A DNA stretch of 64,000 bases from positions 255,940-319,939 of the forward strand of contig CAAFUS010000013.1 in NCBI GenBank assembly GCA_900766265.1, written 5' to 3'. The translations under genes were made by a program, and so were the position numbers. The notes beneath the pieces are model-generated. The model searched no databases, had not been told where the DNA came from, and worked only from the letters and a program-made list of their open reading frames with translations. This document shows, one piece after another, positions 20,094 to 44,302 of the stretch (the stretch's first letter is position 1; each line of letters opens with the position of its first letter). The DNA is from Pseudomonadaceae bacterium. Its GTDB lineage: Bacteria; Pseudomonadota; Gammaproteobacteria; Pseudomonadales; Pseudomonadaceae.

Positions 20094-20417
20094 CTATAGG
20101 CTGAGAAACATAGCCAGGCAGGGTGCGTCTTCCCTTGGCGTCAATGCCGGCTCGCTGTTGCCGCTGATCGCTTGCTTGAGCTTGAGAAACGCGCCTTCAA
20201 CTCGAGGCGCGGATCTGGGCGCCTTTTCTGCGCTTGCCTACAACCGGCCCATTTATTCGGGCTCAGATCTTACGTTGAGTTCACCGCTGCGGGTGCTGAC
20301 GGTATAGATGCCGGAGCCCCAGAAGGCCGTCCGCTCGAGCTTCTCGTCCTGACGATAATCCTCCCAGCACTTGAGGTGCATGTACAGGCTGTACAGGGTC
20401 AACACCGGCGGCTTCTT
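20094..20417 (-). pseudogene. Frameshifted remnant of a paralogous M23-like T6SS effector gene
   Basis: My translation gives three pieces in three frames. They are KKPPVLTLYSLYMHLKCWEDYRQDEKLERTAFWGSGIYTVSTRSGELNVRSEPE*, INGPVVGKRRKGAQIRASS* and VEGAFLKLKQAISGNSEPALTPREDAPCLAMFLSL*. They align colinearly with residues about 126-236 of the intact effector (PPRLTLYSLYMHLQDWAGYQ...AFWE...VRAS...EGEYSKLVSLINGTANPPLT). Confidence 0.6.
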
Positions 20418-23671: not shown

Positions 23672-23731
23672 GTTCGATACGTCCTGATCCTTGCCTTTGG
23701 AGCTGCCTGATAAGCAGCCCTCGTCCTTGCG

Positions 23732-25786
23732 TTAACCGGAAAAGTTGAGCGAGCGCTTGGGTTTGCGAGGTGGATTGAGTACCTCGCCCGGCTGAGCCTG
23801 CTCCAGCAAATTCCCCGCCTTGTCCTTATCTGCCGCGCCCGGCAGCACCGGCGGCTTGATCTTGATGCCTGAGCCCTTGCCCGGCGCCCCGCCGGCGTTG
23901 ATCTTGATCATCGGGCCGCTGACGGTGATGCCGCCGGGGTCGAGCTTGATGAAGCTGCCGCCGGCGGTGAGGGTCAGTTCGATGCCGGCTTCGATGACCA
24001 TTTTCTGGCCGGCCTTGAGGTGGATTTCGCGGCCGGCCTTGGTCAGTTGGGCGGTGCCGAGCTTGGTGTGCTGGGTTTGGCCGACGGTGAGGTGGTCGTC
24101 GGGTTTGACTTCCACCTTGCGGTCGCCGGTGACGGTCAGGTGTTCCTCGGCCCGGAGTTCGGTGAAGCTTGCGGCCTCGACGGTGTCGTGACGTTCGTGG
24201 CCGACGCGGATCTTCTGGTCGTGTTCGATGTTCTCGTCCCAGTCGCGCTGGGCGTGGAGGTATATCTGCTCGGCGCCCTTGCGGTCTTCGATGCGCAGTT
24301 CGTTGTAGCCGCCACCGCCGGGCGAGCTGAGGGTCTTGAAGACGCTTCGCGTTTTGTTCGCCGGCAGGTCGTAGGGAACCTGATGCTCCTTGTGGTACAG
24401 GCAGCCGGTCACAAGTGGCTGGTCGGGATCGCCTTCAAGGAAGGTGACCAACACTTCCATGCCGACCCGCGGGATGGCGATGCCGCCGTAGCGGTCGCCA
24501 GCCCAGCTCGCGCTGACGCGTAGCCAGCAGCTGGTCTTGTCATCGGCTTGGCCGTGACGATCCCAGAAGAACTGGACCTTTACCCGACCGTATTCGTCGC
24601 AATGGATCTCTTCCCCAGCGGGGCCGGTGACGACGGCGGTCTGGCTGCCGAGCACCTTGGGCTTGGGATGCGTCAAGGCGGGACGGTAAGGGATGTCCCA
24701 GGGCGTGGCGGTGAAGTGGTTGCGGTAGCCCTGGGTAAATGAGGTGTCTGCTAGCGCTGGAGGAGAGGTGACTGATTCTTCGAGCACCTGCGGCTGTTTG
24801 CCTTCGTGCAGCACTTCGGTCAGCAGCCAGAGATCGTTCCATTCCCGGCGCGGGTGATCGGAGATTTCCAAGAGGTGCCCGCTGACCAGCTGAGGCTGGT
24901 CACTTTGACCTTCAGCCAGGCGGTAATCGGCGCGATGGCGTTCCAGGGAGCGCTGGGACAGGTGTTTGCCGCGGGCGCGATCGGTGAAGCGGCCCGGGTA
25001 GTCATAATCTTCGAGGTCCGGCTCCGGCGTTGTTTTCCCGTCCCCGGGTTGCCCCTTCTGCGCGGCCTCCATCACCAGTCGGGGTTGTTCGAAGTCATAG
25101 TCGCGCCGGCTTACCCGGGTGGTGCGGGTCTCCAGGCGCACGGAGAAGCGTTTGATTACCGGCTCGTCGGCGACCAGACCGCTGTCCTGCAGGTACGCGG
25201 TGGGTTGCCCTAGCTTGGCAAAGCCCGTCTGGTCATCACCGAACACCAGGACATGGCCTTGCGCGCTGTGCTCGAAGTGATAGTGGATACCTTCCTCTTC
25301 GCACAGGCGCTGAACGAAGTGCAGGTCGGTCTCGTCGTACTGGGTGCAGTAGTCCCGCTCGGGATAGACCACCGGGCCGAGTTGAAAGCGATAGGCGTTT
25401 GCCTGGATGCCGTGGCCCTCCAGCACTTGCGCGATGATCTGCGGCACGGTCAGGTGCTGAAAGATGCGCTGATCGGTGCGGTGTGCGAGATAGGCCAGTT
25501 GAGGGACGATAGCCAGCCGGTAACGGGTCAGGCGCTTGCCGGACTCGCCTTGGGCGACGCGGTGGATCAGCCCGTGGATGCCGTTGCCAGCCGGCGACAG
25601 CGCCAGAAAAGCCGGCTTATGCAGCAGGCTTTGCAAATCAATATCGGGCCGCTCGCTAATCAGTTCAAGGTCGAAGCGGAAGGGCTGGCTGATGGCCTCT
25701 CGCCCGCTGAAGGCGAGCACCTGCAGGTCGTGCTCGGCGCCCTCGATGGTGAGGCTGAAGGGGGTGTCATTGGCCGCGTTGAACAT
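23732..25786 (-). CDS. vgrG: T6SS spike protein VgrG (copy a)
   Basis: Typical VgrG N-terminus (FSLTIEG...LQVLAFSGREAISQPFRFDLELISE) and gp27/gp5-like core; 684 aa. The short Lys/Pro-rich C-terminal tail differs from copy b. Confidence 0.93.
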   Translation of the reverse strand: MFNAANDTPFSLTIEGAEHDLQVLAFSGREAISQPFRFDLELISERPDIDLQSLLHKPAFLALSPAGNGIHGLIHRVAQGESGKRLTRYRLAIVPQLAYLAHRTDQRIFQHLTVPQIIAQVLEGHGIQANAYRFQLGPVVYPERDYCTQYDETDLHFVQRLCEEEGIHYHFEHSAQGHVLVFGDDQTGFAKLGQPTAYLQDSGLVADEPVIKRFSVRLETRTTRVSRRDYDFEQPRLVMEAAQKGQPGDGKTTPEPDLEDYDYPGRFTDRARGKHLSQRSLERHRADYRLAEGQSDQPQLVSGHLLEISDHPRREWNDLWLLTEVLHEGKQPQVLEESVTSPPALADTSFTQGYRNHFTATPWDIPYRPALTHPKPKVLGSQTAVVTGPAGEEIHCDEYGRVKVQFFWDRHGQADDKTSCWLRVSASWAGDRYGGIAIPRVGMEVLVTFLEGDPDQPLVTGCLYHKEHQVPYDLPANKTRSVFKTLSSPGGGGYNELRIEDRKGAEQIYLHAQRDWDENIEHDQKIRVGHERHDTVEAASFTELRAEEHLTVTGDRKVEVKPDDHLTVGQTQHTKLGTAQLTKAGREIHLKAGQKMVIEAGIELTLTAGGSFIKLDPGGITVSGPMIKINAGGAPGKGSGIKIKPPVLPGAADKDKAGNLLEQAQPGEVLNPPRKPKRSLNFSG
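23880..25786 (-). repeat. Left copy of a ~1.9-kb direct repeat (vgrG paralogue core)
   Basis: By-eye alignment of 24181-24740 with 38591-39150 shows only scattered mismatches, roughly 85-90% identity. Similarity ends near the codons for GGAPGKGSG. Confidence 0.8.
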
Positions 25787-25807: not shown

Positions 25808-26800
25808 TCATCCATGGGTGCGCCCGAACCAGCGCTGCAGGCGGCTGGGTGCGGGACGGCGGAAAAGATCGAGCAGTTGGGCGACGCTGACATCTCGCTG
25901 CTCGGGCTCGAAAGCCAGGGCGCGGCGCAGTGCTGGCCAGCAATGGGGCGGTAGCTTGACCGGCCGCTGCAATTCCCTGCCTAGCGTCAAGGCTTTGGCC
26001 TGCTTGGCGCTCAAGCGGCGGAACGGGTGGCTGCCACTGGCGAGCTCATAGAGTAGACAGCCCAGCGCATAGAGGTCGGTGGCGACGGAGAGGTCACCGC
26101 CGTCAAGCAGCTCCAGCGCGGCGTAGCGGGGCGTCCAGGCAGTGAAACGGTTGCGTGCGAGGCGGGGCAGACTGGGCAGCACCCCATCAAGGGGTTGCCC
26201 GAGGCCGTAGTCGAACAAGCGCAGGCCGTCGGCGGCGAGCATGACGTTGCTCGGTTTGAGGTCGCCATGGATCACGCCGCGGCTGTGGGAATACTCCAGC
26301 GCTTCAAGGAGCGGCAGGGCGATATCGCGTAGCTCGTCCCAGGCGATGCCGTCCGGGCGCTCGCTGAGCAACAGGTCGAGGGTCGGCCCCTTGAGCAGTT
26401 CGAGCGTGATGAAGGCACGCTGGCTGGCGGCGTCCACGTCGAAGCCGAACAGTCGCACGACGTGGCGATGGTTAAGTCGGGCGGTCAACGCGAACTCGGT
26501 GTAAAGCAGTGCATGGGCGTCGGGGTACTCGGCGAAATCATCGCTCAGGGTCTTCAGCGCGACGTAGGGTTCCGGGTCGCCAAACTGTTCACGCAACAAA
26601 TCCCGAGCGCGGTAGACCGCGCCCATGCCGCCAACGCCCAGCAGTCGTTCGATCAGATAGCGTCCGCCCAGTACGTCCGGCAGGTCCTTGGCCGCAACGG
26701 CTGCGGCGGCCGGCGTTTCGGCCCTCGGAGAGGTAGCCGTGGCGGCAAAGGCGAAGTAGGTGAGGTCGGACGCCGGTTCGGCGCGTAGCGGTTCGATCAT
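25808..26800 (-). CDS. Short Hanks-type Ser/Thr protein kinase (Stk1/PpkA-like)
   Basis: Kinase motifs GGMGAVYRA, VALK, HGDLKPSN and DYG. The ATG at 26800 overlaps the phosphatase stop (ATGA). It is about 330 aa with no TM or C-terminal sensor domain. Confidence 0.88.
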   Translation of the reverse strand: MIEPLRAEPASDLTYFAFAATATSPRAETPAAAAVAAKDLPDVLGGRYLIERLLGVGGMGAVYRARDLLREQFGDPEPYVALKTLSDDFAEYPDAHALLYTEFALTARLNHRHVVRLFGFDVDAASQRAFITLELLKGPTLDLLLSERPDGIAWDELRDIALPLLEALEYSHSRGVIHGDLKPSNVMLAADGLRLFDYGLGQPLDGVLPSLPRLARNRFTAWTPRYAALELLDGGDLSVATDLYALGCLLYELASGSHPFRRLSAKQAKALTLGRELQRPVKLPPHCWPALRRALAFEPEQRDVSVAQLLDLFRRPAPSRLQRWFGRTHG

Positions 26801-27537
26801 CGCCGTATCACCACGGCGCTGAGGTTGTCTCGGCACGGGCCGTCCATCGCCTCTTCGAACAGCCGCTGCAACGCCAGGCCTGTCGAGGGTGAATTGAGCG
26901 CTACGCCGAGGCTGTCCGGCGACAGGCTCTGGTAGAGACCGTCGCTGCACAGCAGCAGGGTGTCGCCCGGATAAACGTCGAACTCCAGGATATCCAGCAC
27001 CAGCTGTTCGCTGGCGCCGATGGCCCGGGTGAGCGCGTGCGCGGCGGGATGGCGCGCGGCTTCCTCCGGGCTGAGGTTTCCCTCGTCGATCAGCTGCTGG
27101 AGAAGCGAATGGTCACGCGAAAGCTGATACAGGCGACCGCCACGCCAGAGGTAGCAGCGACTGTCGCCGGCCCATACACAGGCGGCGCGATCACCCTCCA
27201 TCATCAGGGCGACCACGGTGCTGCCAATCACCGGGTCGGGGCGATTAGCGGTAACGGTCAGCTCCTGCCCGAGCCGACGATTAAGGTCGTGCAGGCAGCG
27301 GCGCAGGCTGACCACGCGCTCGGCCAGGCTGCCAGCGGGCAGTTCAGCCAGGCGCTCGACGATCAGCCGGCTGGCGAGCGCGCCGTTCTGATGGCCGCCC
27401 ATGCCGTCAGCGACCACCCAGAGGCCTTGCTCGGGAAAGTCGAGAAAGGCATCTTCGTTTCGCGCGCGGACCTTGCCGGTATCGGTCCGCGCGGCACTGC
27501 GCCAGCTATGAGCCAGGCTTGTGGTCCCCGTCATCAC
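26797..27537 (-). CDS. PP2C-family Ser/Thr phosphatase (Stp1/PppA-like)
   Basis: PP2C motifs RARNEDAF, VADGMGGH and LLLCSDGL; 246 aa; overlaps the tssM stop by 4 nt. Confidence 0.9.
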   Translation of the reverse strand: MMTGTTSLAHSWRSAARTDTGKVRARNEDAFLDFPEQGLWVVADGMGGHQNGALASRLIVERLAELPAGSLAERVVSLRRCLHDLNRRLGQELTVTANRPDPVIGSTVVALMMEGDRAACVWAGDSRCYLWRGGRLYQLSRDHSLLQQLIDEGNLSPEEAARHPAAHALTRAIGASEQLVLDILEFDVYPGDTLLLCSDGLYQSLSPDSLGVALNSPSTGLALQRLFEEAMDGPCRDNLSAVVIRR

Positions 27538-33301: not shown

Positions 33302-33790
33302 TCAATTCCCCTTCACGAGCGGGTCGACGGCCTGGATGCCGCGCTCGTCGAGACTCAGCTCGATACGGTTCTGCGCCCTGTGCTGCAGGGGGACGACGAA
33401 ACGCCAGTTGGACTCCGGCAGGTCCCGGTAGGCGGCCAGCACGCCCACGTAGCGGCTGCCGTCCTGGACGAAGAGCTTGAGGTCGCGCTGCTCGCCGGGG
33501 CGCAGTTCCAGTTCCTCCTGGACCACCATGTCCGGCGACAGCGCTTCCTTGGGGCGCTGATAGAGCGAGAAGAAGTCGGCGTTCTCGAAGGCTACCGGGT
33601 GCTTGAGCTCGATCAGGCGGATCACGATGGGGGAGGGGCGACCGTTGAGGTCTGGGTTGAGCCGGTCGCTGCCCTGCAGCGACAGGTCGAGCTTGGTCAG
33701 CTCGGAATTGGGCGAGAGCGCCGAACAGCCGCCGAGCATGGCCAGCGCGGCGAAGACGGCCGCGGGGAAGAAGCGAGACATGGACATCAT
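33302..33790 (-). CDS. tssJ: T6SS outer-membrane lipoprotein TssJ
   Basis: Lipobox MLGGC and the motif RLNPDLNGRPSPIVIRLIELK; 162 aa. Confidence 0.92.
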   Translation of the reverse strand: MMSMSRFFPAAVFAALAMLGGCSALSPNSELTKLDLSLQGSDRLNPDLNGRPSPIVIRLIELKHPVAFENADFFSLYQRPKEALSPDMVVQEELELRPGEQRDLKLFVQDGSRYVGVLAAYRDLPESNWRFVVPLQHRAQNRIELSLDERGIQAVDPLVKGN

Positions 33791-34980
33791 CCTTGAAGGT
33801 CGGTGTTGAGGGTGGCGATGAGGCGTACCTGCTCCTCGTAAGCCTGGGCGAAGTCGCGGGCGAACAGCCGCTCGCTCCAGTCGTCGTCGCGCTGCATGGC
33901 CAGATGCATTCGGCGATAGGCGCGCCAGCGGCTGCCGGATGTGGCAATCAGCGGTTTGTTGTCGCGTTCGAAACGCAGGGCCAACTGGTCCGGCGAAAGC
34001 TGCTCGAGCATTCCCTTGAGTGCCGCGCGGCTGGCGGCCAGCATCGCCACCTGGTGCGCCTGCAGATCGCGAAAGGCGCGCCCGACGGCCTGTTCGGCGG
34101 GCAACTGACGGGGCGTGCCGCCGCGCAGCAGGAGCGCCAACGCTTCGCCACTGTCGATGCTGTGCTTGAGCGGGTTGTTGCCGGCGCTCTGGACGGTGGT
34201 CAGCGACAGGCGCATTTCGTTCTTCAGCTCGCCCCGGGTGCGCAGCGCCTGCTGCAGCCCGCCAACGCTCTGCCTGAGCAGGCTGGCGGCCTTCAGCGCC
34301 AGCGCCTGGCGGGCCTCTTCATCCAGCTCGTCCAGGTCGACGCCCAGCGCCTCGCCGAAGCGCGTCCAGAAATCAGGCGGCAGGCGCTCGGGCTCGGGCA
34401 CGGCCTTGGGTTGGGCGGCCGGCCTGGGCATGACCAGCTCGGGTACCTGCAGGTTCTCCTCATCGATCTGGGCATAGTCGCGCTGCTGGGCCTGCACCCG
34501 CGACGGCGCCAGCACGGCGGTCAGGTCGTCCACTTCGGCATAGACGCGCTCCTGCTGGTCCAGCGCGGTCAGTGGATCGAGGTCGAGAAACGCATCGTCG
34601 GGGATGATGCTGCCGGCCGGCTGCGGACGCCCGATATCTCCTTCGAACGACGCCGGGTCCTGGATCAGCCGTGCGCGAATTTCGAAATCACCCAGGCAGT
34701 AGACGCTGCCGTGCTCGATGCGCTGAGCCCGGCCCTTGTCCAGGCTGGCGCCGGTGTCCTTGAGCTGGATGCCATTGCTGCTGGTGTCGGTGAGGAAGAA
34801 TGCGCCGTCCCGGTAACTCACTTCGGCGTGGCGGCTGGACAACACGCGCTTGCGGTCCGGGATGACCCAGTCGCAATCTTCGGCCCGGCCAATGATGCCG
34901 CCGGCCTGCTTGAAGGTTTTCGTCGTCAACAACCCAGGCACGAACTGCTGTGCGCTGACCACATCGAAGACCAACTCCAT
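33787..34980 (-). CDS. fha: FHA-domain T6SS scaffold protein (Fha/TagH)
   Basis: N-terminal FHA domain (GGIIGRAEDCDWVIPDRKRVLSSRHAEVSYRDGAFFLTDTSSNG). It precedes tssJ with a 4-nt overlap and has AGGAG upstream of its ATG. Confidence 0.9.
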   Translation of the reverse strand: MELVFDVVSAQQFVPGLLTTKTFKQAGGIIGRAEDCDWVIPDRKRVLSSRHAEVSYRDGAFFLTDTSSNGIQLKDTGASLDKGRAQRIEHGSVYCLGDFEIRARLIQDPASFEGDIGRPQPAGSIIPDDAFLDLDPLTALDQQERVYAEVDDLTAVLAPSRVQAQQRDYAQIDEENLQVPELVMPRPAAQPKAVPEPERLPPDFWTRFGEALGVDLDELDEEARQALALKAASLLRQSVGGLQQALRTRGELKNEMRLSLTTVQSAGNNPLKHSIDSGEALALLLRGGTPRQLPAEQAVGRAFRDLQAHQVAMLAASRAALKGMLEQLSPDQLALRFERDNKPLIATSGSRWRAYRRMHLAMQRDDDWSERLFARDFAQAYEEQVRLIATLNTDLQG

Positions 34981-35000
34981 GGTGATACTACTCCTGGCGG

Positions 35001-35135
35001 TCAGTTACCGCGGTTTACTGCTTGCGGGTCGCCCAGCGGGCGGTAGTCGGCATCGTTGAACTTGTAGTTGCCGGAACAGCCGGCAAGGACGAAGGCGGTG
35101 ACGATCAGGGCGAATGCGAAAAAGCGCTTGAGCAC
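35001..35135 (-). CDS. 44-aa predicted lipoprotein, first gene of the fha-tssJKLM operon (not in the ORF track)
   Basis: My translation is V-LKRFFAFALIVTAFVLAGCSGNYKFNDADYRPLGDPQAVNRGN*. GTG start at 35135, with AAGGAGGA 7 nt upstream (plus strand 35143-35150 TCCTCCTT). Lipobox LAGC; TGA at 35001-35003; 20 nt upstream of fha. Confidence 0.65.
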   Translation of the reverse strand: MLKRFFAFALIVTAFVLAGCSGNYKFNDADYRPLGDPQAVNRGN

Positions 35136-35545
35136 GCGATTTCCTCCTTGAATGCGTGAGCGGGAACGGCCGCGGCCGTGGTGAAGCGGAACTTCTACGT
35201 CTATTGAAGGTCACCGCGCCCGCAAGCGGGGTGATGGGGTTCACGAACTGGGCCGTCGCCAGTCAGAGAGTGAGGCACCGCACGCTTTGGCGTGCGGGTT
35301 GACACGGTGCAGCACCAAGGCGGTTGTGTCTGTGACCCAGGCCAACCTGGCGCGGTCTTGGGCGGCTCAGAGCCGATACTCACTGCGTCATTGAGGTCCT
35401 GCTCGGGGCGTCCGGAAATGTGCATTAGCAGCCAGCACACCGTATCTAATTGATGCTTCATAAACCTAGGAACATACTGATCCAGTAGCCGGTCAGGCTG
35501 ATGCGAGCAAAAGGACCGTTTTGAGCTTGCTGAGCGAATAGCAAC

Positions 35546-35640
35546 TCAATCGAGTATATGTACACCAAGTTGACGGCCAAGAGGCCCAATAACTATTGAT
35601 TCCAAAAAAGGCTGATGCATGTAAAAAGCCAGGATGTTGC
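35546..35640 (-). pseudogene. Degenerate duplicate of the 3' end of the adjacent immunity gene
   Basis: The minus strand reads ...SWLFTCISLFWNQ*, and after a frameshift ...IVIGPLGRQLGVHILD*. This parallels the intact gene end AAWLYFTCISLIIHWVSMFIGFLGHHFGINIFA*. It starts immediately after the intact gene's stop. Confidence 0.55.
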
Positions 35641-35645
35641 TTCGT

Positions 35646-35990
35646 TCAAGCGAATATATTTATACCGAAATGATGGCCAAGAAAGCCAATAAACATGCTT
35701 ACCCAGTGAATGATAAGACTGATGCATGTGAAGTAAAGCCAGGCAGCCAGGGTGCGACCGACATTGGGCCTTTTTAAGCCAAAAGCGTATTGAAAACTAT
35801 AGCGGTGCATTCGGGAAAATCTGTCAAAAGGACTATGAGACTCCCATTCATAATTGGGAAGTCGAGAGAAATGTGGATCGAGCCGGCGTATTCCGTGGAA
35901 GCAGATGTAAATACCGTTGACGCCTCCGCTTACAAATAACAGAAACCATGCATAATAGAGGGCTTGCTTAAGCGTCAGGACGTCGCTCAT
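35646..35990 (-). CDS. Small inner-membrane candidate immunity protein for the LysM/glycine-zipper effector
   Basis: The ATG at 35990 lies 1 nt after the effector stop (TGAtATG). It is 114 aa with two strongly hydrophobic segments (ALYYAWFLLFVSGGVNGIYICF; LAAWLYFTCISLIIHWVSMFIGFLG) and is AT-rich. Confidence 0.6.
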   Translation of the reverse strand: MSDVLTLKQALYYAWFLLFVSGGVNGIYICFHGIRRLDPHFSRLPNYEWESHSPFDRFSRMHRYSFQYAFGLKRPNVGRTLAAWLYFTCISLIIHWVSMFIGFLGHHFGINIFA

Positions 35991-35991
35991 A

Positions 35992-37251
35992 TCAGTTGAC
36001 TCCCTGATAAATAATATCACCCATATATTCGCCAAAGCTGCCGCCTTCCGATCCGCCATAATAGGCACCGGCAGCAGCGCCAGCGATTGCGATCACTGCG
36101 AGGGCGGGAGCTCCAACTGTGACACCGAACGCGATTGCGACTCCTCCCGCTACGGCAGTCGCTATTTGACCGCCTGCGAAACCTCCGACTGCGCCGCCGC
36201 TTGCACTGCCTATGAAACCAGTTACCTGCATGTAGCCGGTTCGGGTGCAGGCTTGATCATTCCCGACTGTGCAAGCTTCCTGAATCTTGTTCAACCGAAC
36301 GCCACCGTCGATGGCAATTCCCAAGTAGCCCAGCCGACTCGATCCCTTGGCCCAGCTAGAAATCGTATTGATCCGTTGCCCAAGTTGCGGCACCTCGCCT
36401 CTCTCAGTAATTGCAGAAGCGTTATGCAGGATAGATTTGGTCGATAAGCCGAGGGTGGACTTAATGCTGTGGTAGTTACGAATATTGATAGATGAAAGGG
36501 TCAAGCGACCCAGAGAGTGATTCAGCTGACTAAATAGCTGCTGACGCTTCGTATAGAACTCAGGGGAAAACCTGCTGGCGTTTCCGGCGCGTCGCAGTTC
36601 TTCCACATACGCGGCGTTTATCTTCTCCAGATTGCTTCTGACGTCTCCCAGCTGTCGTCCTGCCGCTGCGCTCAGCACACCCAGCGCGGTGCTCTGGTGG
36701 GATGCAACGGTTTCCAGGGAGATGTAATCCAGTACCTCCAGATGCCGCTTGACCGTCATGGCTTCATCAGGCGTCAGTTGTTGAATGCCTTCACTTGCAA
36801 GCTTCGCCTGTTCCCTTGCCTTTTCCAGGCGCTGCCGGTCGTCGTCGGTACGCGGCATGTTGGAGACGATGACGATCTCTCCGGGCAGTACCGTCTCCTT
36901 GAGGTGTTCGTTATTACGCTGGAACAGCGAGCGATGAAGAAAGTGCATTTCATTGCCGCAGATCTCCTCGTAGATCGCCTGGCGGCGCTGCACCTTGTCG
37001 TTCCAGTAGAACGCCACGTCGAATGCAGCACCACTGCATTGACTGTCCTGAACGACTTGTCCAGCTGTACAGCCGGGCCGGGCGGGTCCGGTCGTTTCAG
37101 GCACACGCAGTGTCTGTCCGGCCTGGATCTGGTTCGGGTTTTCGATCTCTGGATTCAGACGCAGCAGATTGCTGATGGTTGTACCGTGATCGCTGGCTAT
37201 CCGGGCCAGACTATCGCCTCGCTGTATGCTGTATTCCATTGCGTTATCCAT
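35992..37251 (-). CDS. T6SS effector candidate: N-terminal LysM domain, helical middle, C-terminal glycine-zipper membrane-insertion region
   Basis: LysM at aa 6-51 (YSIQRGDSLARIASDHGTTISNLLRLNPEIENPNQIQAGQTLRVP). Gly-zipper at aa about 341-400 (GFIGSASGGAVGGFAGGQIATAVAGGVAIAFGVTVGAPALAVIAIAGAAAGAYYGG). It follows the DUF4123 adaptor gene. An alternative start is the ATG at 37239. Confidence 0.65.
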   Translation of the reverse strand: MDNAMEYSIQRGDSLARIASDHGTTISNLLRLNPEIENPNQIQAGQTLRVPETTGPARPGCTAGQVVQDSQCSGAAFDVAFYWNDKVQRRQAIYEEICGNEMHFLHRSLFQRNNEHLKETVLPGEIVIVSNMPRTDDDRQRLEKAREQAKLASEGIQQLTPDEAMTVKRHLEVLDYISLETVASHQSTALGVLSAAAGRQLGDVRSNLEKINAAYVEELRRAGNASRFSPEFYTKRQQLFSQLNHSLGRLTLSSINIRNYHSIKSTLGLSTKSILHNASAITERGEVPQLGQRINTISSWAKGSSRLGYLGIAIDGGVRLNKIQEACTVGNDQACTRTGYMQVTGFIGSASGGAVGGFAGGQIATAVAGGVAIAFGVTVGAPALAVIAIAGAAAGAYYGGSEGGSFGEYMGDIIYQGVN

Positions 37252-38071
37252 TCAGACCAAGCAGGTCGGCTTCGATTCGAGCCAGCCGGTGCTCGGCAGG
37301 TTCGTCCATGTTAGCCAGTCGCATACGAACGTCTGGTTTGTTGATAGCGTCGGGAAACTGGAGCGCCAGCTCAACGTAGGCGAACAGGTGCTGCTCAGAC
37401 TCGATGCCGAACTTTTCAGCTTCTGCCGTACGCTGATGGATGATCTCTTTCAGCTCCACATCTGGTTGCCCGTTAAAGTTGTTAACGCAAAAGTGCGATA
37501 CCAAGCGCTGAATGAATAGCTGTCGCTCTTGTTCCTGCCAGCGAGCAAGGTGCTCCGCGCGAATCGAAAACCAGCCTTCGTCGTCGGCAGGTCTGGCGGG
37601 AGAGGAATAGGGCGTGGTGAAACCTAGCCATTTGTTTTCTTCGGCAGGTACCCATATTTTGCTGACAGGACCGAGCCAGGCGCTGAGTTCGTCTTGTGTG
37701 AGGCTGTCGAAGAAACGTTCGGTCAAGGCTGGGTCATAAAACCTGCAGAAGGCCAATTCTCCAGAGTGCAGCCTGACGCTCAGCAGGCTGCGCAAATGGT
37801 TCGCCAGGCCCTCGATGTTAACGGAGCTTTCCAAAAGCAGGCCTGACGATTGCCAACGCTCCCGGTTTTCCCACAAACGATGTTGTCCGGAGAGGCGATA
37901 CAAGGCGGGGCTGACTTCCAGCATGGACTCATGGCGCGTGCCTCGGTACAGAGGCTCTACCTTGGGTGCATCATCGTGCTGATAGATGACCTGCAAGGCG
38001 GGTAACGCCGCGCCATCGAGCAGCAGGTAGAGGTCGTCCCGCTCGATCTCCGGTTCTTCTGCTCCGCGCAT
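37244..38071 (-). CDS. DUF4123-family T6SS adaptor/chaperone (Tap/Tec-like)
   Basis: Motifs LYLLLDGAALP and CRFYDPALTERFF are typical of DUF4123. The ATG at 38071 shares one base with the vgrG stop (TGATG). It lies between vgrG and the effector gene. Confidence 0.75.
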   Translation of the reverse strand: MRGAEEPEIERDDLYLLLDGAALPALQVIYQHDDAPKVEPLYRGTRHESMLEVSPALYRLSGQHRLWENRERWQSSGLLLESSVNIEGLANHLRSLLSVRLHSGELAFCRFYDPALTERFFDSLTQDELSAWLGPVSKIWVPAEENKWLGFTTPYSSPARPADDEGWFSIRAEHLARWQEQERQLFIQRLVSHFCVNNFNGQPDVELKEIIHQRTAEAEKFGIESEQHLFAYVELALQFPDAINKPDVRMRLANMDEPAEHRLARIEADLLGLNG

Positions 38072-40167
38072 CAAACCACGCTCGCGTTCTTGCCGCATGG
38101 GCAAACCTCCAATTGGCAGAAGCCATCGGGTTGCACGCCGCATTGTTTGACCAACAGCAGCTTGGCCGCCGCAGCCTGCTTGAGTTGCGGCGACATGTTG
38201 ATCAAGGCCGGCAAAGTGAGGCCGCCGGCAGCGGCGCTAGCCGCCAGCCATGGAATCACTGGTGCCAGAATATTCAATCCCGACCCTTTTCCCGGCGCAC
38301 CACCCGAATTCATCTTGATCGTCGCCCCGCTCAGGGTCACGCCGCTCGGGTCGAATTTTAGGAAGCTGCCGCCGCCTTTGGCGGTGAGCTCCATGCCTGC
38401 GTCGATGACGACTTTGCTGCCGGCGTAGTAGTGAATTTCGTTGCCCGCCTCAACGAACTGCCCGGTGCCAATCTTCGTGTGCTGGGCGTTGCCCACGGTG
38501 AGATGGTCGTTGGCGCGGATTTCGGTCTTGCGGTCGGCGTGGGTGGTGCGGTGTTCTTCGGCGCGGAATTCGCTGTAGCTGTTGGCCTCGACGGTGTCGT
38601 GGCGTTCGTGGCCGACGCGGATCTTCTGGTCGTGTTCGATGTTTTCGTCCCAGTCGCGCTGAGCGTGGACGTAGATCTGCTCGGCGCCTTTGCGGTCTTC
38701 GATGCGCAATTCGTTATAGCCGCCACCGCCCGGGCTGCTGAGGGTCTTGAAGACGCTTCGCGTCTTGTTGGCCGGCAGGTCATACGGGACGACATGCTCC
38801 TTGTGGTACAGGCATCCGGTGACCAGAGGCTGATCGGGGTCGCCTTCGAGGAAGGTCACCAGCACTTCCATGCCCACGCGGGGGATGGCTATGCCGCCGT
38901 AGCGGTCACCCGCCCAGCTTGAGCTAACGCGCAGCCAGCAGCTGGTCTTGTCGTCTGCCTGACCGTCACGGTCCCAGTGGAACTGGACCTTCACCCGGCC
39001 GTATTCGTCGCAGTGGATCTCTTCACCGGCAGGGCCGGTGACCACAGCGGTCTGGCTGCCGAGGACTTTGGGCTTGGGATGCTTCAGCGCCGGGCGGAAG
39101 GGGATGTCCCAGGGCGTGGCGGTGAAGTGGTTGCGGTAGCCTTGAGTAAAATCGTCACGGGCGAGGCTGTCGCTCGTCACCGATTCTTCCAGCACCTGCG
39201 GCTGCTTGCCGTCGTGGAGGATCTCGTTCAGCAGCCAAAGCTGGTTCCAGTCAGCGCGCGAGTGCTCGGCGAGCGAAAGAAAATGACCGGTGACCAAGAG
39301 AGGCTGATCGCTCTCGCCTTCGGCCAGCTCGAAATCGCTGCGGTGACGTTCCAGTGCACGTTGGGACAGGTGCTTGCCGCGGGCGCGCTCGGTGAAGCGG
39401 CCGGGGTAGTCGTAGTCTTCCAGGTCTGGCTGAAATTCGCTCTGGAAGGCGCCTTCCATCGTCAGACGCGGTTTCTCGAAATCGTAGTCGCGGCGGGTGA
39501 CGCGGCTGGTGCGGGTCTCGACCCGCAGGGCGAAGCGCTTGATCACCGGCTGGTCGGCGACCAAACCAGAGTCCTGCTGATAGGCCACCGGTGAGAGCTT
39601 AGGGAAACCCGTCTGGTCGTCGCCGAACACCAGCACGTGCCCCGCAGCGCTGTGCTGGAAGTGGTAGTGAATGCCTTCTTCCTCGCACAGGCGCTGGATG
39701 AAGTGCAGGTCGCTCTCGTCGTACTGCACGCAGTAGTCGCGCTCGGGGTAGACCGAACCGAGGCCGAAGCGGAAGGCGTCCGCCTGAATGCCATGCTCTT
39801 CGAGTACCTGACTGATGATCTTCTCCACCGTCAGGTGCTGGAAGATGCGCTGGTTGGTGCGGTGAGCCAGGTAGGCCAGCTGCGGGCGCAGGGTGATGTG
39901 ATAGCGGGTCAGGCGCTTGCCCGAATCACCCTGGGCGATGCGGTAAATCAGACCATGGATGCCGTTGCCGGCCGGCGAGAGGGCAAGAAAGGCCGGCTGG
40001 TGCAGCAGGCTTTCCAGGTCCAGGTCAGGGCGCTCGCTGACCAGCTCGAGCTCGAAGGCGAAGGGCTGGGAGAGCGCCTCGCGGCCCTTGAACTCAACTA
40101 CCTGCAGGTCGTGGGTGATGCCTTCGATGGCGAGGCTGAAATGGGTGTCGTTGGCCGGGTTGAACAT
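38071..40167 (-). CDS. vgrG: T6SS spike protein VgrG (copy b) with distinct hydrophobic/Cys-rich C-terminal tail
   Basis: The core is near-identical to copy a. The tail is ...NILAPVIPWLAASAAAGGLTLPALINMSPQLKQAAAAKLLLVKQCGVQPDGFCQLEVCPCGKNASVV; 698 aa. Confidence 0.93.
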   Translation of the reverse strand: MFNPANDTHFSLAIEGITHDLQVVEFKGREALSQPFAFELELVSERPDLDLESLLHQPAFLALSPAGNGIHGLIYRIAQGDSGKRLTRYHITLRPQLAYLAHRTNQRIFQHLTVEKIISQVLEEHGIQADAFRFGLGSVYPERDYCVQYDESDLHFIQRLCEEEGIHYHFQHSAAGHVLVFGDDQTGFPKLSPVAYQQDSGLVADQPVIKRFALRVETRTSRVTRRDYDFEKPRLTMEGAFQSEFQPDLEDYDYPGRFTERARGKHLSQRALERHRSDFELAEGESDQPLLVTGHFLSLAEHSRADWNQLWLLNEILHDGKQPQVLEESVTSDSLARDDFTQGYRNHFTATPWDIPFRPALKHPKPKVLGSQTAVVTGPAGEEIHCDEYGRVKVQFHWDRDGQADDKTSCWLRVSSSWAGDRYGGIAIPRVGMEVLVTFLEGDPDQPLVTGCLYHKEHVVPYDLPANKTRSVFKTLSSPGGGGYNELRIEDRKGAEQIYVHAQRDWDENIEHDQKIRVGHERHDTVEANSYSEFRAEEHRTTHADRKTEIRANDHLTVGNAQHTKIGTGQFVEAGNEIHYYAGSKVVIDAGMELTAKGGGSFLKFDPSGVTLSGATIKMNSGGAPGKGSGLNILAPVIPWLAASAAAGGLTLPALINMSPQLKQAAAAKLLLVKQCGVQPDGFCQLEVCPCGKNASVV
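38270..40167 (-). repeat. Right copy of the ~1.9-kb direct repeat (vgrG paralogue core)
   Basis: See the left copy. Same strand, about 14.4 kb apart. Confidence 0.8.
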
Positions 40168-40182: not shown

Positions 40183-41691
40183 TTAGAGGTCTGCAGGGCT
40201 GATGTTCAGCCGTTCCATGCGGTACAGCAGGGTGCGCCGTGGCAGGCCCAGCTCGCGGGCGGCCTGGCTCTGGTTGCCGCCGTTCCTGCGCAGGCAGTCG
40301 ACGAGCAGGTTGCGCTCGACCCGCTCCATTCGCTCACGCAGGGTCATGCCGCTTGGCTCGCTTTCCGCCTCGATGCGCAGGTTGAAATGCTCGGGCAGAA
40401 GTTCACCGCCTTCGCACAGCAGCACGGCGCGTTCGACGAGGCCCTTCAGTTCGCGCACGTTGCCAGGGAAGCTGTAACTGGCCAGCTGCTCGAGCGCCGC
40501 ATCCGACCAGCGACAGAGGTTGCGCTGGAGAAAGGTGCAGGCCTTGTCGGCGAAATGGCGGGCCAGACGCAGGATGTCCTGGTCGCGTTCGCGCAGCGGG
40601 GGCAGCTCGATGGGAAAATGCGAGAGACGGTAGTAGAGGTCTTCGCGAAAACGACCCTCTTCGACACGCTTACGCAAGTCCTGATGCGTTGCGGCGACGA
40701 TCCGCACGTCGACCTTATGGGTGTCGGTCGAGCCTAATGGACGCACTTCGCCTTCCTGCAGAACGCGCAATAGTTTGGCCTGCAGCAGTAGCGGCATGTC
40801 GCCGATTTCGTCGAGAAACAGGGTGCCGCCGTCTGCCGCATCCAACAGGCCGGCGCGGTCGCGGTCGGCACCCGTGAAAGCGCCTTTGCGGTAGCCGAAG
40901 AGTTCGCTTTCAAGCAGGTTTTCCGGCAAAGAAGCGCAGTTCTGCACGATGAACGCTTTGCTGCGCCGGTAGCCGCAATCATGGATGGCGCGGGCGACCA
41001 GTTCCTTGCCGGTGCCGGTCTCGCCGGTCAGCAGCACACTCACCGGGCTATGCAGGACCTTGCCGATCAGTCCGTAGACTGCGCGCATGCGTGCGCTGTC
41101 CCCAATCAGACCATAACCGCTGGCGCAGGGGGCCACTGGCGCGCTCGGCGCTTCCTGTCGCGGCGCGCGCAGGCGCTGGAGCAGTTGCGCTTGAGCGATG
41201 CTGAATTTGCCGAGCTGATCAAGGGAGTCGCCAAAGGCACTCAGGTCGCGAACCTGGCGGCTCGCGGTAACCAGCAACCCGCGGACGCGGCCCTGTTCAT
41301 CCGCCAACGGCAGGCACAGCAGGCTGCGCCAAGGGCGTGAGTGCTCAGGCAAGAAGCTGCTGGCGTGCAGGCTGCTGTCGAGTTCGGCGATGAACAGCCG
41401 CTGGTTCTGACACAGGCAATACTGCAGCAGCTGCTCGCCGTCGTAATCGCTGGGCAGGCTGGCTGCTTCGCGCGGTTGCAGCACGCCGTCGAGCCATTCG
41501 GCCGAGAGGGTCAGGCGCGTATGCGTCTCATCAAGAAGATACAGCTGGCTCAGCTCGCAGCCCGCCAGCGTCGCCGCGGCGTCGACAAGGCCGCCAAGCA
41601 AGGCATCCGCGCTGGCGGTGCGTGCCAGCGCCGCGAAGTGCTCCAGCAGCGACTGCGCATAGCGCAGCGGCTGAGGGACCTGGTCGAACAT
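40183..41691 (-). CDS. Sigma-54-dependent transcriptional activator with N-terminal GAF domain (Sfa-like bEBP)
   Basis: GAF-like N-terminus. The AAA+ core has Walker A GETGTGKE and the sigma-54 contact motif GAFTGA ([15 protein letters not shown]). C-terminal Fis-type HTH ([19 protein letters not shown]). An alternative start at 41748 would overlap clpV. Confidence 0.9.
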
Positions 41692-41701
41692 CGGCGCCTG
41701 C

Positions 41702-44302
41702 TTAAGCGAACTCACAGACCACCGTTCCTTGGCTGTCCAGAGTGGCATGTACGCGTTGCAGGGCTTCGCCGCCGGCCATGGCGTCGAGCAGACGGTCGAC
41801 CACTAGCGGCTGCAGGTGTTGGTCAATCAGATGGTCGATCAGACGCGCGCCGCTGTCGCTGTGGGTGCAGCGTTCGGCGAGGTTCTCGACCAGCGCTTCG
41901 CAGTGGCTGAACTGCAGCTGGCGACGCGCCAGACGCTCACCGAAGCGCGACAGCTTGAGCGCGACCAGTTCGTTGAGCACTTCGCCCTGCACGGGGTAGT
42001 AGGGCACAACGCGCATACGGGCAAGCAGCGCAGGCTTGAAGTGCTGGGTCAGCGCCGGACGGATGGCCAGTTCCAGGTCCTCGGTTGCCGGGCGCTGGTC
42101 GCCCTGGCAGAGGCTGGCGATACGGTCGCTGGCGAGGTTGCTGGTCATCAGGATAAGGGTGTTGCGGAAGTTGATCTCGCGCCCCTCGCCGTCGTTGGCC
42201 ACACCCTTGTCGAAGATCTGATAGAAGACATTCATCACGTCCGGGTCGGCCTTTTCGACTTCATCGAGCAGGACCACCGAGTACGGCTTCTGCCGAACGG
42301 CCTCGGTCAGCATGCCGCCTTCGCCGTAACCGACGTAGCCCGGTGGCGCGCCGATCAGGCGGGAAACGGTGTGCTTTTCCTGGAACTCGGACATGTTGAT
42401 GGTGGTGAGGAAACGCTCGCCGCCATAGAGCAGGTCGGCGAGGGCCAGTGCGGTTTCGGTCTTGCCGACGCCGCTTGGGCCGACCAGCAGGAAAACGCCA
42501 ACAGGCGCGTCGGGCTTGTTCAGTCCGGCTGCGGTGGCACGCATCGAGCGGTCGAGCGCATCGATCGCTTGCTCCTGGCCCCGTACGCGCTGGCGGAGAT
42601 CGTTCGCGAAGCTGAGCACCTTGCTGTTGTGTTCACGGGCGAGCTGAGAGAGTGGCACGCCGGTCCAGTGGCTGATCACTTCCGCCACCAGGCGAGGGCA
42701 GACCTCGAAACTCACCAGCCGCTCGGTCGCTTGGGCGCTGGCGAGTTCGACCTGAAGATCACGCAGTTCGGCTTCAAGCTGCTCGAGGTTCGGGTGCGCT
42801 TCACTCTCGGATTCGGCAGACGGGGCCAGGCGCGCGGCAGCGCATTGCTTGCGAAGCTCCAGCAGGCGCTCGGCCAGCGTGCGTTGCGTGGACCAGCGTG
42901 TTTCCAGCTGCTCGAGTTCGGCGCGGGCAGCCGCCAGGCGGGTCTCGAGCGCATCCAGTATGTCGGTGTCGATGTGCAGGCCTGCGTCGAGGTCGCGGCG
43001 CAGCGCGACTCCCTGGCGCTCGCCCTCGGCGATTTCACCGCGCAGACGTTCCAGGGCTTCAGGGGCCGCGGCGAGACTGATACGTACCCGGGCGCAGGCA
43101 GTGTCGAGTACGTCCACAGCCTTGTCCGGCAGCTGGCGCCCGGCGAGGTAGCGGGCTGACAACTCGGCAGCGGCCACGACGGCGTCGTCGCGCAGGTAAA
43201 TGCCATGGCTCTTTTCGTACACAGGTGCGAGGCCGCGCAGGATGGTCACCGCTTCGTCGACGGTGGGTTCGAGCAGCTGGACAGGTTGGAAACGGCGGGC
43301 GAGGGCAGGGTCCTTCTCGAAGTACTTCTTGTACTCGCTCCAGGTGGTGGCGGCGATGGTGCGCAATTCGCCACGCGCCAGCGCCGGCTTGAGCAGGTTG
43401 GCGGCGTCGCCACTGCCGGCCTGGCCGCCAGCACCGATCAGAGTGTGGGCTTCATCGATGAACAGGATGATCGGCTTGGGTGAGGCCTTGACCTCGTCGA
43501 TCACGCCCTGCAAGCGGCGTTCGAACTCACCTTTGACGCTGGCGCCGGCCTGCAGCAAACCGAGGTCCAGGCACAACAGCTCGACGCCTTTGAGCGCTTC
43601 GGGCACTTCGCCAGTGGCGATGCGCAGGGCAAGGCCCTCGACGATGGCAGTCTTGCCCACGCCGGCTTCGCCAACCACGATCGGGTTGCTTTTGCGACGG
43701 CGCGCGAGGATGTCGATCATCTGGCGGATGGCAGCGTCGCGGCATAGTACCGGGTCGAGTTTGCCGTCCCGGGCCTGCTGAGTGAAGTTGTGCGTGAAGC
43801 GCGACAGGTTGGACTCGCCTGCTGGCGTTGCCTTGCCCGGCGCGGAAACTGGCTGCTGGGCAAGCGCGAATTCGCGCAGACGTTCGGCGTTCAGGCGCGC
43901 CAGCAGCGGCTGGTAATGGCTACCGGCGTAGCGCATCGGGTTACGCAACAGCGCCAGGATCAGTGCGGCCTGGTCGATCTGGCTCTGACCGAGCTCGAGG
44001 TTGCCGACCAGCAAGGCGTCCTGCAGCCACTGCACCAGTTCGGCGGAGAACACCGGGTTGCGTGATTCGCTGTGCTCGCCGCGCGGCTGCAGCGCCTGGG
44101 CGAGGGCTCCGGCGTCGACATCGGCGTCTTGCAGGGCGCGCATAAGCAAGCCTTCGGGCCGCTCCAGCAGGCCCAGCAGCAGGTCTTCGACGAGAATCTT
44201 GCTGCCGCCACGCACCACACAGCGCTCGGCTGCAGCTTCCAGGTCGCGCTTGGTCTCGGCATCAAGTGCCTGAACCAGTTGTTGTAGGTCTACGTTGATC
44301 AT
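41702..44302 (-). CDS. clpV: T6SS AAA+ ATPase ClpV (TssH)
   Basis: Two Walker A boxes (GEAGVGKTAIVEGLA; GPSGVGKTETALALA). The start was set to the ATG at 44302 (MINVDLQQLVQALD), 10 nt after the tssG stop. Confidence 0.95.
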   Translation of the reverse strand: MINVDLQQLVQALDAETKRDLEAAAERCVVRGGSKILVEDLLLGLLERPEGLLMRALQDADVDAGALAQALQPRGEHSESRNPVFSAELVQWLQDALLVGNLELGQSQIDQAALILALLRNPMRYAGSHYQPLLARLNAERLREFALAQQPVSAPGKATPAGESNLSRFTHNFTQQARDGKLDPVLCRDAAIRQMIDILARRRKSNPIVVGEAGVGKTAIVEGLALRIATGEVPEALKGVELLCLDLGLLQAGASVKGEFERRLQGVIDEVKASPKPIILFIDEAHTLIGAGGQAGSGDAANLLKPALARGELRTIAATTWSEYKKYFEKDPALARRFQPVQLLEPTVDEAVTILRGLAPVYEKSHGIYLRDDAVVAAAELSARYLAGRQLPDKAVDVLDTACARVRISLAAAPEALERLRGEIAEGERQGVALRRDLDAGLHIDTDILDALETRLAAARAELEQLETRWSTQRTLAERLLELRKQCAAARLAPSAESESEAHPNLEQLEAELRDLQVELASAQATERLVSFEVCPRLVAEVISHWTGVPLSQLAREHNSKVLSFANDLRQRVRGQEQAIDALDRSMRATAAGLNKPDAPVGVFLLVGPSGVGKTETALALADLLYGGERFLTTINMSEFQEKHTVSRLIGAPPGYVGYGEGGMLTEAVRQKPYSVVLLDEVEKADPDVMNVFYQIFDKGVANDGEGREINFRNTLILMTSNLASDRIASLCQGDQRPATEDLELAIRPALTQHFKPALLARMRVVPYYPVQGEVLNELVALKLSRFGERLARRQLQFSHCEALVENLAERCTHSDSGARLIDHLIDQHLQPLVVDRLLDAMAGGEALQRVHATLDSQGTVVCEFA

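Follow-up and report, generated by a model that had tools for sequence, protein, structure and literature searches.

The stretch of DNA analyzed here (the window; 64,000 nucleotides of contig CAAFUS010000013.1 from a Pseudomonadaceae bacterium) contains a complete Stutzerimonas type VI secretion system (T6SS) cluster. Its minus strand carries, in this order, genes for ClpV, a sigma-54 activator, VgrG1, a DUF4123 protein, a LysM-domain protein, a 114-residue protein, TagH, TssJ, TssK, TssL, TssM, PppA, PpkA and a second VgrG island, with TssG, TssF and the sheath gene on the opposite side of the cluster. Judged from comparative sequence evidence, the open reading frame (ORF) for the LysM-domain protein very probably specifies a T6SS effector, and the next gene its cognate membrane immunity protein. 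The features on which the argument rests are, with structural evidence from AlphaFold2 (AF2) models:

35992..37251, minus strand: effector ORF, 419 residues from the first ATG, no signal peptide
37099..37233, minus strand: canonical LysM domain (PF01476), effector residues 7-51, proposed loading handle
35995..37026, minus strand: modular toxin domain of an unnamed family, residues 76-419 (about 344 residues), delimited by profile search and N-terminal fusions
36859..37023, minus strand: second, cryptic LysM-like module, residues 77-131, from AF2, Foldseek and hhalign
36265..36846, minus strand: all-helical core, residues 136-329, from AF2 helices and invariant columns
36247..36273, minus strand: near-invariant cysteine pair C327...C335 (ACTxGxxxxC), in a helix turn directly before the zipper
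36052..36231, minus strand: Gly/Ala-rich hydrophobic zipper, residues 341-400, a predicted membrane-inserting helical hairpin, from composition, hydropathy and the conserved Gly pattern
35646..35990, minus strand: putative immunity protein, 114 residues (ATG at 35990; also 114 residues in the public gene call), with two hydrophobic segments
37244..38098, minus strand: DUF4123 adaptor of the Tap/Tec type, 284 residues in the public gene call, PF13503 E=1.5e-24
38071..40167, minus strand: VgrG1, 698 residues, presumed carrier, with Phage_GPD (3.6e-84), Gp5_trimer_C and Phage_base_V; TIGR03361 E=2e-207

The likely true start of the effector is the second ATG (M5, nucleotide 37239), as indicated by database homologues and an independent gene call; it yields a protein of 415 residues, and M5 is an invariant column in the alignment of effector homologues. 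Residue numbers throughout refer to the 419-residue frame. One metagenome-assembled sequence matches the protein at 100% identity, and a sequence from S. nosocomialis at 97%. The adaptor gene overlaps both the VgrG1 stop and the effector start, and the order vgrG, DUF4123, effector and immunity gene fits the layout of adaptor-dependent cargo of the Tap/Tec DUF4123 class. The same four-gene set recurs in all seven Stutzerimonas/Pseudomonas loci and in Halopseudomonas. The GC content at third codon positions is 0.645 for the adaptor, 0.60 for the effector and 0.478 for the 114-residue gene, against 0.78-0.91 for the core T6SS genes, so that adaptor, effector and immunity gene together look like an acquired cargo module.

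A modular toxin domain with interchangeable N-termini

A profile of the toxin domain searched against 1.84 billion representatives recovered 547 clusters at E<=1e-3 and 340 at E<=1e-10, clusters being counted at 50% identity. The family is found mainly in marine Gammaproteobacteria and Stutzerimonas, and the members examined are annotated as hypothetical or generic LysM proteins. Already in the first search the region equivalent to residues ~76-419 was preceded in other proteins by PAAR (P0058, P0059), by VgrG (Marinomonas primoryensis), by a DUF2345-like segment (M. mediterranea), by an unfamiliar N-terminus (Aeromonas salmonicida) or by no extension at all (P0062). Stand-alone size (300-379 residues) is seen in 50 of the best 148 matches, and Pfam searches of 72 N-terminally extended representatives identified PAAR in 23, LysM in 4, VgrG in 2, and Tox-PAAR-like, PG_binding_1 and PG_binding_3 in 1 each. 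Across species-representative genomes the forms are distributed by genus as follows:

LysM form: Stutzerimonas and Pseudomonas sp. HS-2, 7 loci
PAAR-fused form: Marinobacter, 13 loci; split PAAR plus toxin, 2 loci
VgrG-fused form: Marinomonas, 2 loci
Stand-alone form, about 340 residues: Oleispira, Shewanella, Photobacterium, Colwellia and others

At six stand-alone loci with an upstream ORF, this ORF is an unrelated gene, e.g. dapB, an AraC-type regulator or a glycosyltransferase. On these comparisons of sequence and gene order the domain behaves as a polymorphic T6SS toxin domain, and the fusion of the same body to PAAR or VgrG in other genera supports the view of the original prediction that the window protein is a T6SS effector candidate. 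That prediction also spoke of a pore-forming tail; the toxic unit is, however, more than the zipper, the conserved domain spanning ~344 residues (76-419).

The Aeromonas salmonicida homologue (locus L004, 1-8700; CP110647.1) is a protein of 462 residues followed by a 103-residue ORF with two predicted transmembrane segments. It adjoins phage tail genes (tail fibre, Caudo_TAP, Phage_tail_S), not T6SS genes.

A putative immunity protein inherited with the toxin domain

The 114-residue ORF begins 1 nucleotide past the effector stop, behind a GGGAG sequence, and is translationally coupled to the effector. Its product has no Pfam match at E<=10 and shows hydrophobic segments at ~10-32 and 83-107; the intervening 50-residue loop contains 9 Lys and Arg against 4 Asp and Glu, and is therefore probably cytoplasmic. 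A clear homologue exists in Halopseudomonas pelagia, where the ORF is uncalled and its ATG overlaps the stop of the effector gene of that species. In 16 of 16 other loci, PAAR-fused, VgrG-fused and stand-alone forms included, the next ORF lies within a few nucleotides of the toxin stop and specifies a protein of 115-139 residues (one cut by the contig end) with N- and C-terminal hydrophobic segments. The same two-segment layout is found in the ORFs that follow the P0058, Aeromonas and M. mediterranea toxins (113, 103 and 132 residues respectively). The 114-residue protein and its distant counterparts show only weak pairwise similarity, yet they align in register (E=7e-5). The presence of such an ORF behind every delivery form examined implies that the toxin domain and the two-transmembrane protein are inherited as a pair. 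This pairing gives strong comparative support, short of proof, to an effector-immunity relationship, and the assignment of the downstream protein as the immunity factor, proposed earlier from this locus alone, gains from the identical layout behind the toxin body in all loci examined.

A 665-nucleotide non-coding gap (window 34981-35645, GC 0.567) separates the immunity gene from tagH. Within it a remnant at ~35461-35511 weakly resembles the C-terminal transmembrane segment of the immunity protein (17 residues, 53% identity, E=0.002). The equivalent place in Pseudomonas sp. HS-2 (L013, 7158-8002) is occupied by one orphan toxin tip together with two additional immunity genes, and toxin-tip remnants and immunity arrays are also found in L034 and L038.

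These genomic patterns bear on the possibility that the LysM protein is no toxin at all, and instead a cell-wall-associated accessory or structural T6SS protein with a small membrane partner. Accessory proteins of T6SSs and phage baseplates are known to contain LysM and peptidoglycan-binding domains, and Foldseek does match the window protein to baseplate LysM proteins. Such a role is nevertheless highly improbable in view of the lack of a signal peptide, the foreign composition of the gene and its variable presence among relatives, and of a whole set of polymorphic-toxin traits, namely fusion to PAAR or VgrG, solitary toxin tips, arrays of immunity genes and orphan bicistrons that lie among housekeeping genes.

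Organization of the toxin domain and its predicted membrane action

The AF2 model, built on an alignment of 123 sequences, has a mean predicted local distance difference test score (pLDDT) of 74. Residues 79-130 are modeled with pLDDT >90 as a beta-alpha-alpha-beta unit (strands 79-83 and 126-130, helices 90-98 and 104-113), and this LysM-like module opens the toxin domain in all aligned members, including the PAAR-fused, VgrG-fused and stand-alone forms. In Foldseek searches tandem-LysM crystal structures (4uz2, Ecp6) align over ~130 columns, which comprise both LysM units of the effector. Comparison of the profile of the N-terminal LysM with the family-wide profile using hhalign places residues 104-131 in register (P=3e-5, probability 73%); an earlier comparison with a narrow alignment was not significant (P=0.088). 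Pfam finds neither a second LysM in the effector nor any LysM in 52 mostly stand-alone-size members, so that the support for this module comes from fold and profile, without Pfam.

The helical core (136-329) is modeled with pLDDT >80 in about two-thirds of its 10-residue blocks, with dips at 181-200, 251-290 and 301-329. It contains the best-conserved motif of the toxin domain, LGLSTKS (267-273); further conserved polar residues are N114, R236, K264, K272, S273 and D315. Pfam and NCBIfam searches with the toxin domain, the zipper by itself and the immunity protein (E<=10) returned nothing or one chance-level hit, and sequence searches of the PDB, with the single sequence and with a profile, recovered LysM only, apart from a spurious PAAR match caused by leftover columns of the alignment. 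Likewise, when two AF2 models were compared with the PDB and one with BFVD, LysM was the sole structural match and the helical body had no significant one. Foldseek rows for ClyA-type pore-formers were weak (probability 0.03) and were disregarded. No enzyme family or fold matched the toxin domain at any threshold tried.

The cysteines C327 and C335 (toxin-domain positions ~252 and ~260) are invariant in 42 sequences and at least 90% conserved in 123. They probably form a disulfide, which would be able to form only in the periplasm; an analogy, though not one based on homology, is offered by Ssp2 and Ssp4 of Serratia, effectors that depend on DsbA (PMC5792426). Two more conserved cysteines, ~16 residues apart, lie inside the zipper in most members beyond the Stutzerimonas/Halopseudomonas branch (alignments A5 and A7), and the window protein lacks them.

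The zipper itself consists of 27% Gly and 28% Ala, has 8 overlapping GxxxG motifs and is the sole strongly hydrophobic stretch of the effector. Its small-xxx-small pairs number 22, against ~20 expected from composition by our own estimate; hence motif counting alone provides no evidence, and the signal lies in composition and conservation. The pattern ExGxxxGxxxGGxxGG...GGxGxxxGG is kept in the consensus of the 123 sequences, which are 20-43% identical, and zipper and cysteine pair are conserved as strongly as the body. The dense zipper predicted at ~341-400 is confirmed as a conserved Gly/Ala-rich hydrophobic region. Pfam gives no Gly-zipper match in the effector (E<=10) and a single weak Gly-zipper_Omp match (E=0.005) among 52 relatives, and the zipper profile, run against 5.8 billion proteins, retrieved nothing but short fragments without a name. 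A series of short proteins (P0276-P0294, ~64-193 residues, most 90-125), several of them from Stutzerimonas, contain little beyond the cysteine pair and the zipper module, and could represent either toxin tips left as orphans or small toxins in their own right.

Taken together, a zipper that is the only hydrophobic region, an all-helical body without an enzyme-like match and a predicted integral-membrane immunity protein lead us to infer that the effector acts on membranes, by depolarization or pore formation. Glycine-zipper and helical toxins of T6SSs and type VII secretion systems that have membrane immunity proteins depolarize cells (table in PMC13133200; PMC12669606; PMC12744356). One could alternatively assign a non-pore activity, such as catalysis or the binding of a membrane-associated target, to the helical body (136-330), with the zipper being an anchor or a device for crossing the inner membrane as in Agrobacterium Tde1, where the glycine zipper serves translocation and not toxicity (PMC10240207). 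The position of LGLSTKS and of conserved polar residues outside the zipper would suit this alternative, as would the conserved RxHRY-type motif in the immunity loop that is predicted to be cytoplasmic. It is, however, distinctly unlikely, given that no enzyme family or fold was matched at the thresholds tried, that the immunity protein is predicted to be almost wholly membrane-embedded, that zipper and cysteine pair are conserved like the body, and that stand-alone proteins of ~100-123 residues are little more than the zipper module.

The N-terminal LysM as a probable loading handle

The original prediction of a textbook LysM is confirmed: PF01476 matches over its full model length at residues 7-51 (E=1.2e-13, 51.2 bits against a cut-off of 20.9). 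The AF2 fold, which is of good model quality, is beta-alpha-alpha-beta (strands 4-8 and 47-51, helices 15-21 and 26-32) and superposes in Foldseek on solved LysM domains with TM-scores of 0.87-0.91 and a root-mean-square deviation of ~1 A; a sequence search of the PDB gives up to 40% identity to solved LysM domains, glycan-binding ones among them. Hydropathy reveals no N-terminal hydrophobic segment in the effector, the first LysM strand starting at residue 4. The linker between LysM and toxin domain has a cysteine pair, C61 and C72 (window 37037-37071).

Three comparative observations point to the function of this domain. Firstly, it takes the N-terminal slot held by PAAR or VgrG in homologues. 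Secondly, VgrG and DUF4123 lie directly upstream in 8 of 8 loci of the LysM form (the seven Stutzerimonas/Pseudomonas loci and Halopseudomonas), while phmmer searches with the DUF4123 protein of the window found no adaptor within ~5 kb of the PAAR-fused, VgrG-fused and stand-alone forms. Thirdly, four homologues of the adaptor (32-39% identity), from Marinobacter fonticola, Alkalilimnicola ehrlichii, Tamilnaduibacter salinus and one metagenome-assembled genome, each precede a LysM-headed effector (LysM at 3/5-47/49) with a different toxin body: uncharacterized proteins of ~675-713 residues, and in one case a 1225-residue protein combining LysM with VasX_N. The exchange of LysM with PAAR and VgrG, together with its co-variation with the adaptor, suggests that it is best read as a loading handle.

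This is in keeping with published work, in which an N-terminal LysM is a class of T6SS effector delivery domain: in a Burkholderia LysM-NlpC/P60 effector binding to VgrG requires LysM, and a stand-alone LysM protein bridges VgrG and toxin (Wang et al. 2023, PMC10673891). The window effector, with its N-terminal LysM in a vgrG locus, shares the arrangement seen in LysM-assisted loading (PMC10673891), and the Tke5 paper (PMC13133200) counts LysM as one of the domains that head pore-forming proteins of the BTH_I2691/VasX family. Combining a cell-wall anchor with a pore-forming tail, which had been thought unusual, is thus not so: LysM-headed T6SS effectors are documented, a pore-former family included, and an effector with LysM and VasX_N occurs behind a homologous adaptor. 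Between the two roles first considered for LysM, recognition of adaptor or VgrG fits the comparative data better than retention on the sacculus.

In the latter reading LysM and the built-in LysM-like module would bind peptidoglycan of the target and hold the toxin near the inner membrane, with loading achieved via other surfaces. It is compatible with delivery as proposed here, and has in its favor that the N-terminal LysM is canonical, high-scoring and 40% identical to glycan-binding LysM domains, that the LysM-like fold is present in every aligned toxin domain, including forms needing no extra handle, and that single members have PG_binding_1 or PG_binding_3 in the N-terminal slot. Against it stands the exchange of LysM with PAAR and VgrG, parts that serve delivery and do not bind the wall. 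LysM also tracks a single DUF4123 clade through toxins that are otherwise unrelated, and most family members must work without a canonical LysM; PG_binding_1, like LysM, is also among the vgrG-locus domain families proposed for effector recruitment (PMC10673891). We regard this reading as rather unlikely, even though the LysM-like unit inside the toxin domain may well be a peptidoglycan binder.

With respect to the comparison cargos, effector C72 aligns with C68, the sole invariant cysteine column (alignment A9) of the four LysM-headed proteins with other bodies. One or two genes with an FGE-sulfatase domain lie behind each LysM-headed effector of ~675-713 residues (L048, 6936-8801; L050, 6877-7785; L051, 3593-5442), and may represent the immunity family for the toxin of these proteins.

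Relationship to known toxin families

Several characterized families resemble the window effector in part. Among LysM-headed effectors and co-effectors, Burkholderia BRPE67_05220 (LysM-NlpC/P60) and Ketobacter Kalk_10460 (PMC10673891) share with it a LysM at the extreme N-terminus, a cargo position after vgrG and, in some loci, an adaptor. They differ in their unrelated toxin bodies, the body of the window effector being helical and membrane-directed, with a DUF4123 clade that tracks LysM.

Tse4, Ssp6 and Tse5-CT likewise have a Gly-rich hydrophobic C-terminal region, an integral-membrane immunity protein and an expected periplasmic attack on the inner membrane, and the conserved GxxxG/AxxxG repeats in a hydrophobic segment that mark them are present in the effector. 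These toxins or fragments are only 147-216 residues long and are delivered by Hcp or by Rhs/VgrG (table in PMC13133200), in contrast to the window toxin unit of ~344 residues with its LysM-like module, helical body and cysteine pair. The likeness to them that had been predicted holds for composition and motif, and not as demonstrated homology.

Ssp4 of Serratia (PMC12669606) is similar in being a mostly helical protein of ~330-340 residues with one small sheet, often encoded by an orphan bicistron that also specifies a small membrane immunity protein, in its wide distribution in Pseudomonas and marine Gammaproteobacteria, and in its cysteine-dependent activity. Its essential cysteines are C47, C123 and C165 (PMC5792426), as against the pair at ~252 and ~260 of the toxin domain, and its immunity protein Sip4 has four transmembrane helices as against two hydrophobic segments. 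In the published list of hits to the Ssp4 hidden Markov model (Dataset EV2 of PMC12669606, score >100) there are no Stutzerimonas or Halopseudomonas entries. The sole Methylocaldum entry is A0A250KWE4, another protein of M. marinum, and the toxin-family member of Methylocaldum marinum, A0A250KQS1, searched for by accession and genus term, is absent (its cluster-mates A0A250KQI6 and A0A250KR56 were not searched). Membership in the Ssp4 family was rejected on indirect tests, namely the hit list, the cysteine positions and the number of immunity transmembrane helices.

Vibrio Tme1 and Tme2 (PMC7046647) also place a C-terminal membrane-disrupting domain on PAAR, VgrG and other N-termini, with a membrane immunity protein downstream. 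The Tme domain is ~150 residues long with a near-invariant DxxK followed by a transmembrane helix, and Tmi is DUF1240-like with 3-6 transmembrane helices. Membership was rejected as this motif is missing from the conserved columns and the immunity protein has two segments and no Pfam match at E<=10; the toxin-family accessions searched for are not in the Tme supplementary tables. The BTH_I2691 family (VasX/Tke5/Ptx2) shows the same order of VgrG, DUF4123, effector and membrane immunity gene, consists of depolarizing toxins and has LysM among its N-terminal domains; VasX and Tke5 are ~1000 residues long, compared with the 415 of the effector, and this family too was rejected, there being no match to NF041559 or VasX_N/MIX, either in the entire effector at E<=0.01 or in its toxin domain at E<=10. 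In sum, the toxin domain lacks those diagnostic features of the Ssp4, Tme and VasX/Tke5 families that could be checked, Ssp4 and Tme being compared by their published descriptions. The literature on LysM and glycine-zipper T6SS effectors and on stutzeri T6SS effectors yielded no description of the toxin family. New here are a widespread but so far unnamed family of toxins with immunity proteins, the cryptic LysM-like module and the cysteine pair of its toxin domain, and the link of LysM to one DUF4123 clade.

Other features of the T6SS cluster

One further gene belongs to the cluster:

40183-41748, minus strand: sigma-54 activator, between ClpV and VgrG1

VgrG1 and VgrG2 are 77% identical over residues 1-650, where the alignment stops, and the last ~48 residues are unrelated. 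The C-terminal region of VgrG confers effector specificity in other systems. The tail of VgrG1 (window 38071-38215, ~48 residues) is rich in cysteines, CGVQPDGFCQLEVCPCG, and may be a metal- or disulfide-stabilized knob that serves as docking site for the adaptor-effector complex. VgrG2 (23732-25786) belongs to a second cargo island at the end of the cluster (window 18855-25786, minus strand, GC 0.43-0.52). This island also encodes an 815-residue protein with SH3_3 and GH19/lysozyme-like domains (21224-23671), which is probably a cell-wall-degrading effector, and two ORFs of 272 (20418-21236) and 142 residues (18855-19283) that have no Pfam matches. A PpkA-like Ser/Thr kinase, a PppA-like PP2C phosphatase and the FHA protein TagH (window 25808-27537 and 33787-34980) form a threonine-phosphorylation switch like that controlling the H1-T6SS of P. 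aeruginosa.

Proposed mode of action and its implications

Based on these observations we propose, with a probability of roughly 0.55, that an adaptor-effector-immunity module acquired by a Stutzerimonas T6SS occupies a vgrG slot and delivers a LysM-loaded toxin, which inserts its zipper from the periplasm, depolarizes the target and is neutralized within the membrane. The effector would be synthesized in the cytoplasm without a signal peptide, attached through its N-terminal LysM and the DUF4123 adaptor to the variable tail at the C-terminus of VgrG1, and fired into a neighboring Gram-negative cell. In the periplasm of the target the ~344-residue toxin domain is predicted to attack the inner membrane: the cysteine pair before the zipper would probably form its disulfide only there, and the C-terminal Gly/Ala zipper helices would insert and oligomerize, thereby dissipating the membrane potential. 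The 114-residue two-transmembrane protein is expected to neutralize the toxin within the membrane and so protect sister cells. Of this picture, the data show the domain content, the gene order, the modular nature of the toxin domain, its joint inheritance with the two-transmembrane protein and the co-variation of LysM with one adaptor clade, whereas secretion, the partners bound by LysM, action in the periplasm, the disulfide and the pore are deduced from them.

Certain points weigh against this proposal. Residues 332-418, which include the zipper, are modeled as four helices (among them 332-357, 363-375 and 381-397) at a pLDDT of only ~40. Homology to validated pore-formers is not demonstrable, Tse4, Ssp6 and Tse5-CT having been compared by description only, and the topology of the immunity protein derives from hydropathy and the positive-inside rule alone. 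The co-variation of LysM and adaptor is drawn from 12 loci, and the A. ehrlichii cargo has a VasX_N/MIX domain as well; as a MIX-type domain is the DUF4123-binding surface in Tke5 (PMC13133200), its occurrence in one of the four comparison cargos means that the adaptor may bind something other than LysM. The effector LysM also retains the glycan-binding motif GD(S/T)L...N...GQ, and hence may itself bind peptidoglycan. The support is, moreover, computational throughout.

A more far-reaching version can be put forward only tentatively, and we consider it less likely than the above proposal. Here the N-terminal LysM would be the recognition code of one DUF4123 clade, a marker akin to MIX, FIX and RIX by which effectors with dissimilar bodies could be mined, perhaps echoing the contacts between LysM and hub in baseplates of phages and extracellular contractile injection systems. 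At the same time, the toxin domain would define a large unnamed family of T6SS membrane toxins, with its own LysM-like module docking on the sacculus, a cysteine pair that activates it only after oxidation in the target periplasm, and a new two-transmembrane immunity family as its partner.

Modules of VgrG, adaptor, effector and immunity protein with a membrane-active toxin are well known, and the finding would therefore extend the understanding of T6SSs and not change it. If confirmed, it would allow a widespread toxin/immunity family, with its 547 clusters at 50% identity, to be named and characterized. It would also provide a rule for effector discovery, namely that LysM-headed cargo goes with this DUF4123 clade, and extend the LysM-headed T6SS effectors, so far linked mainly to cell-wall hydrolases, to a toxin that targets membranes. 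Most likely, then, the Stutzerimonas cluster carries a weapon of a familiar kind, armed with a toxin from an unstudied family.

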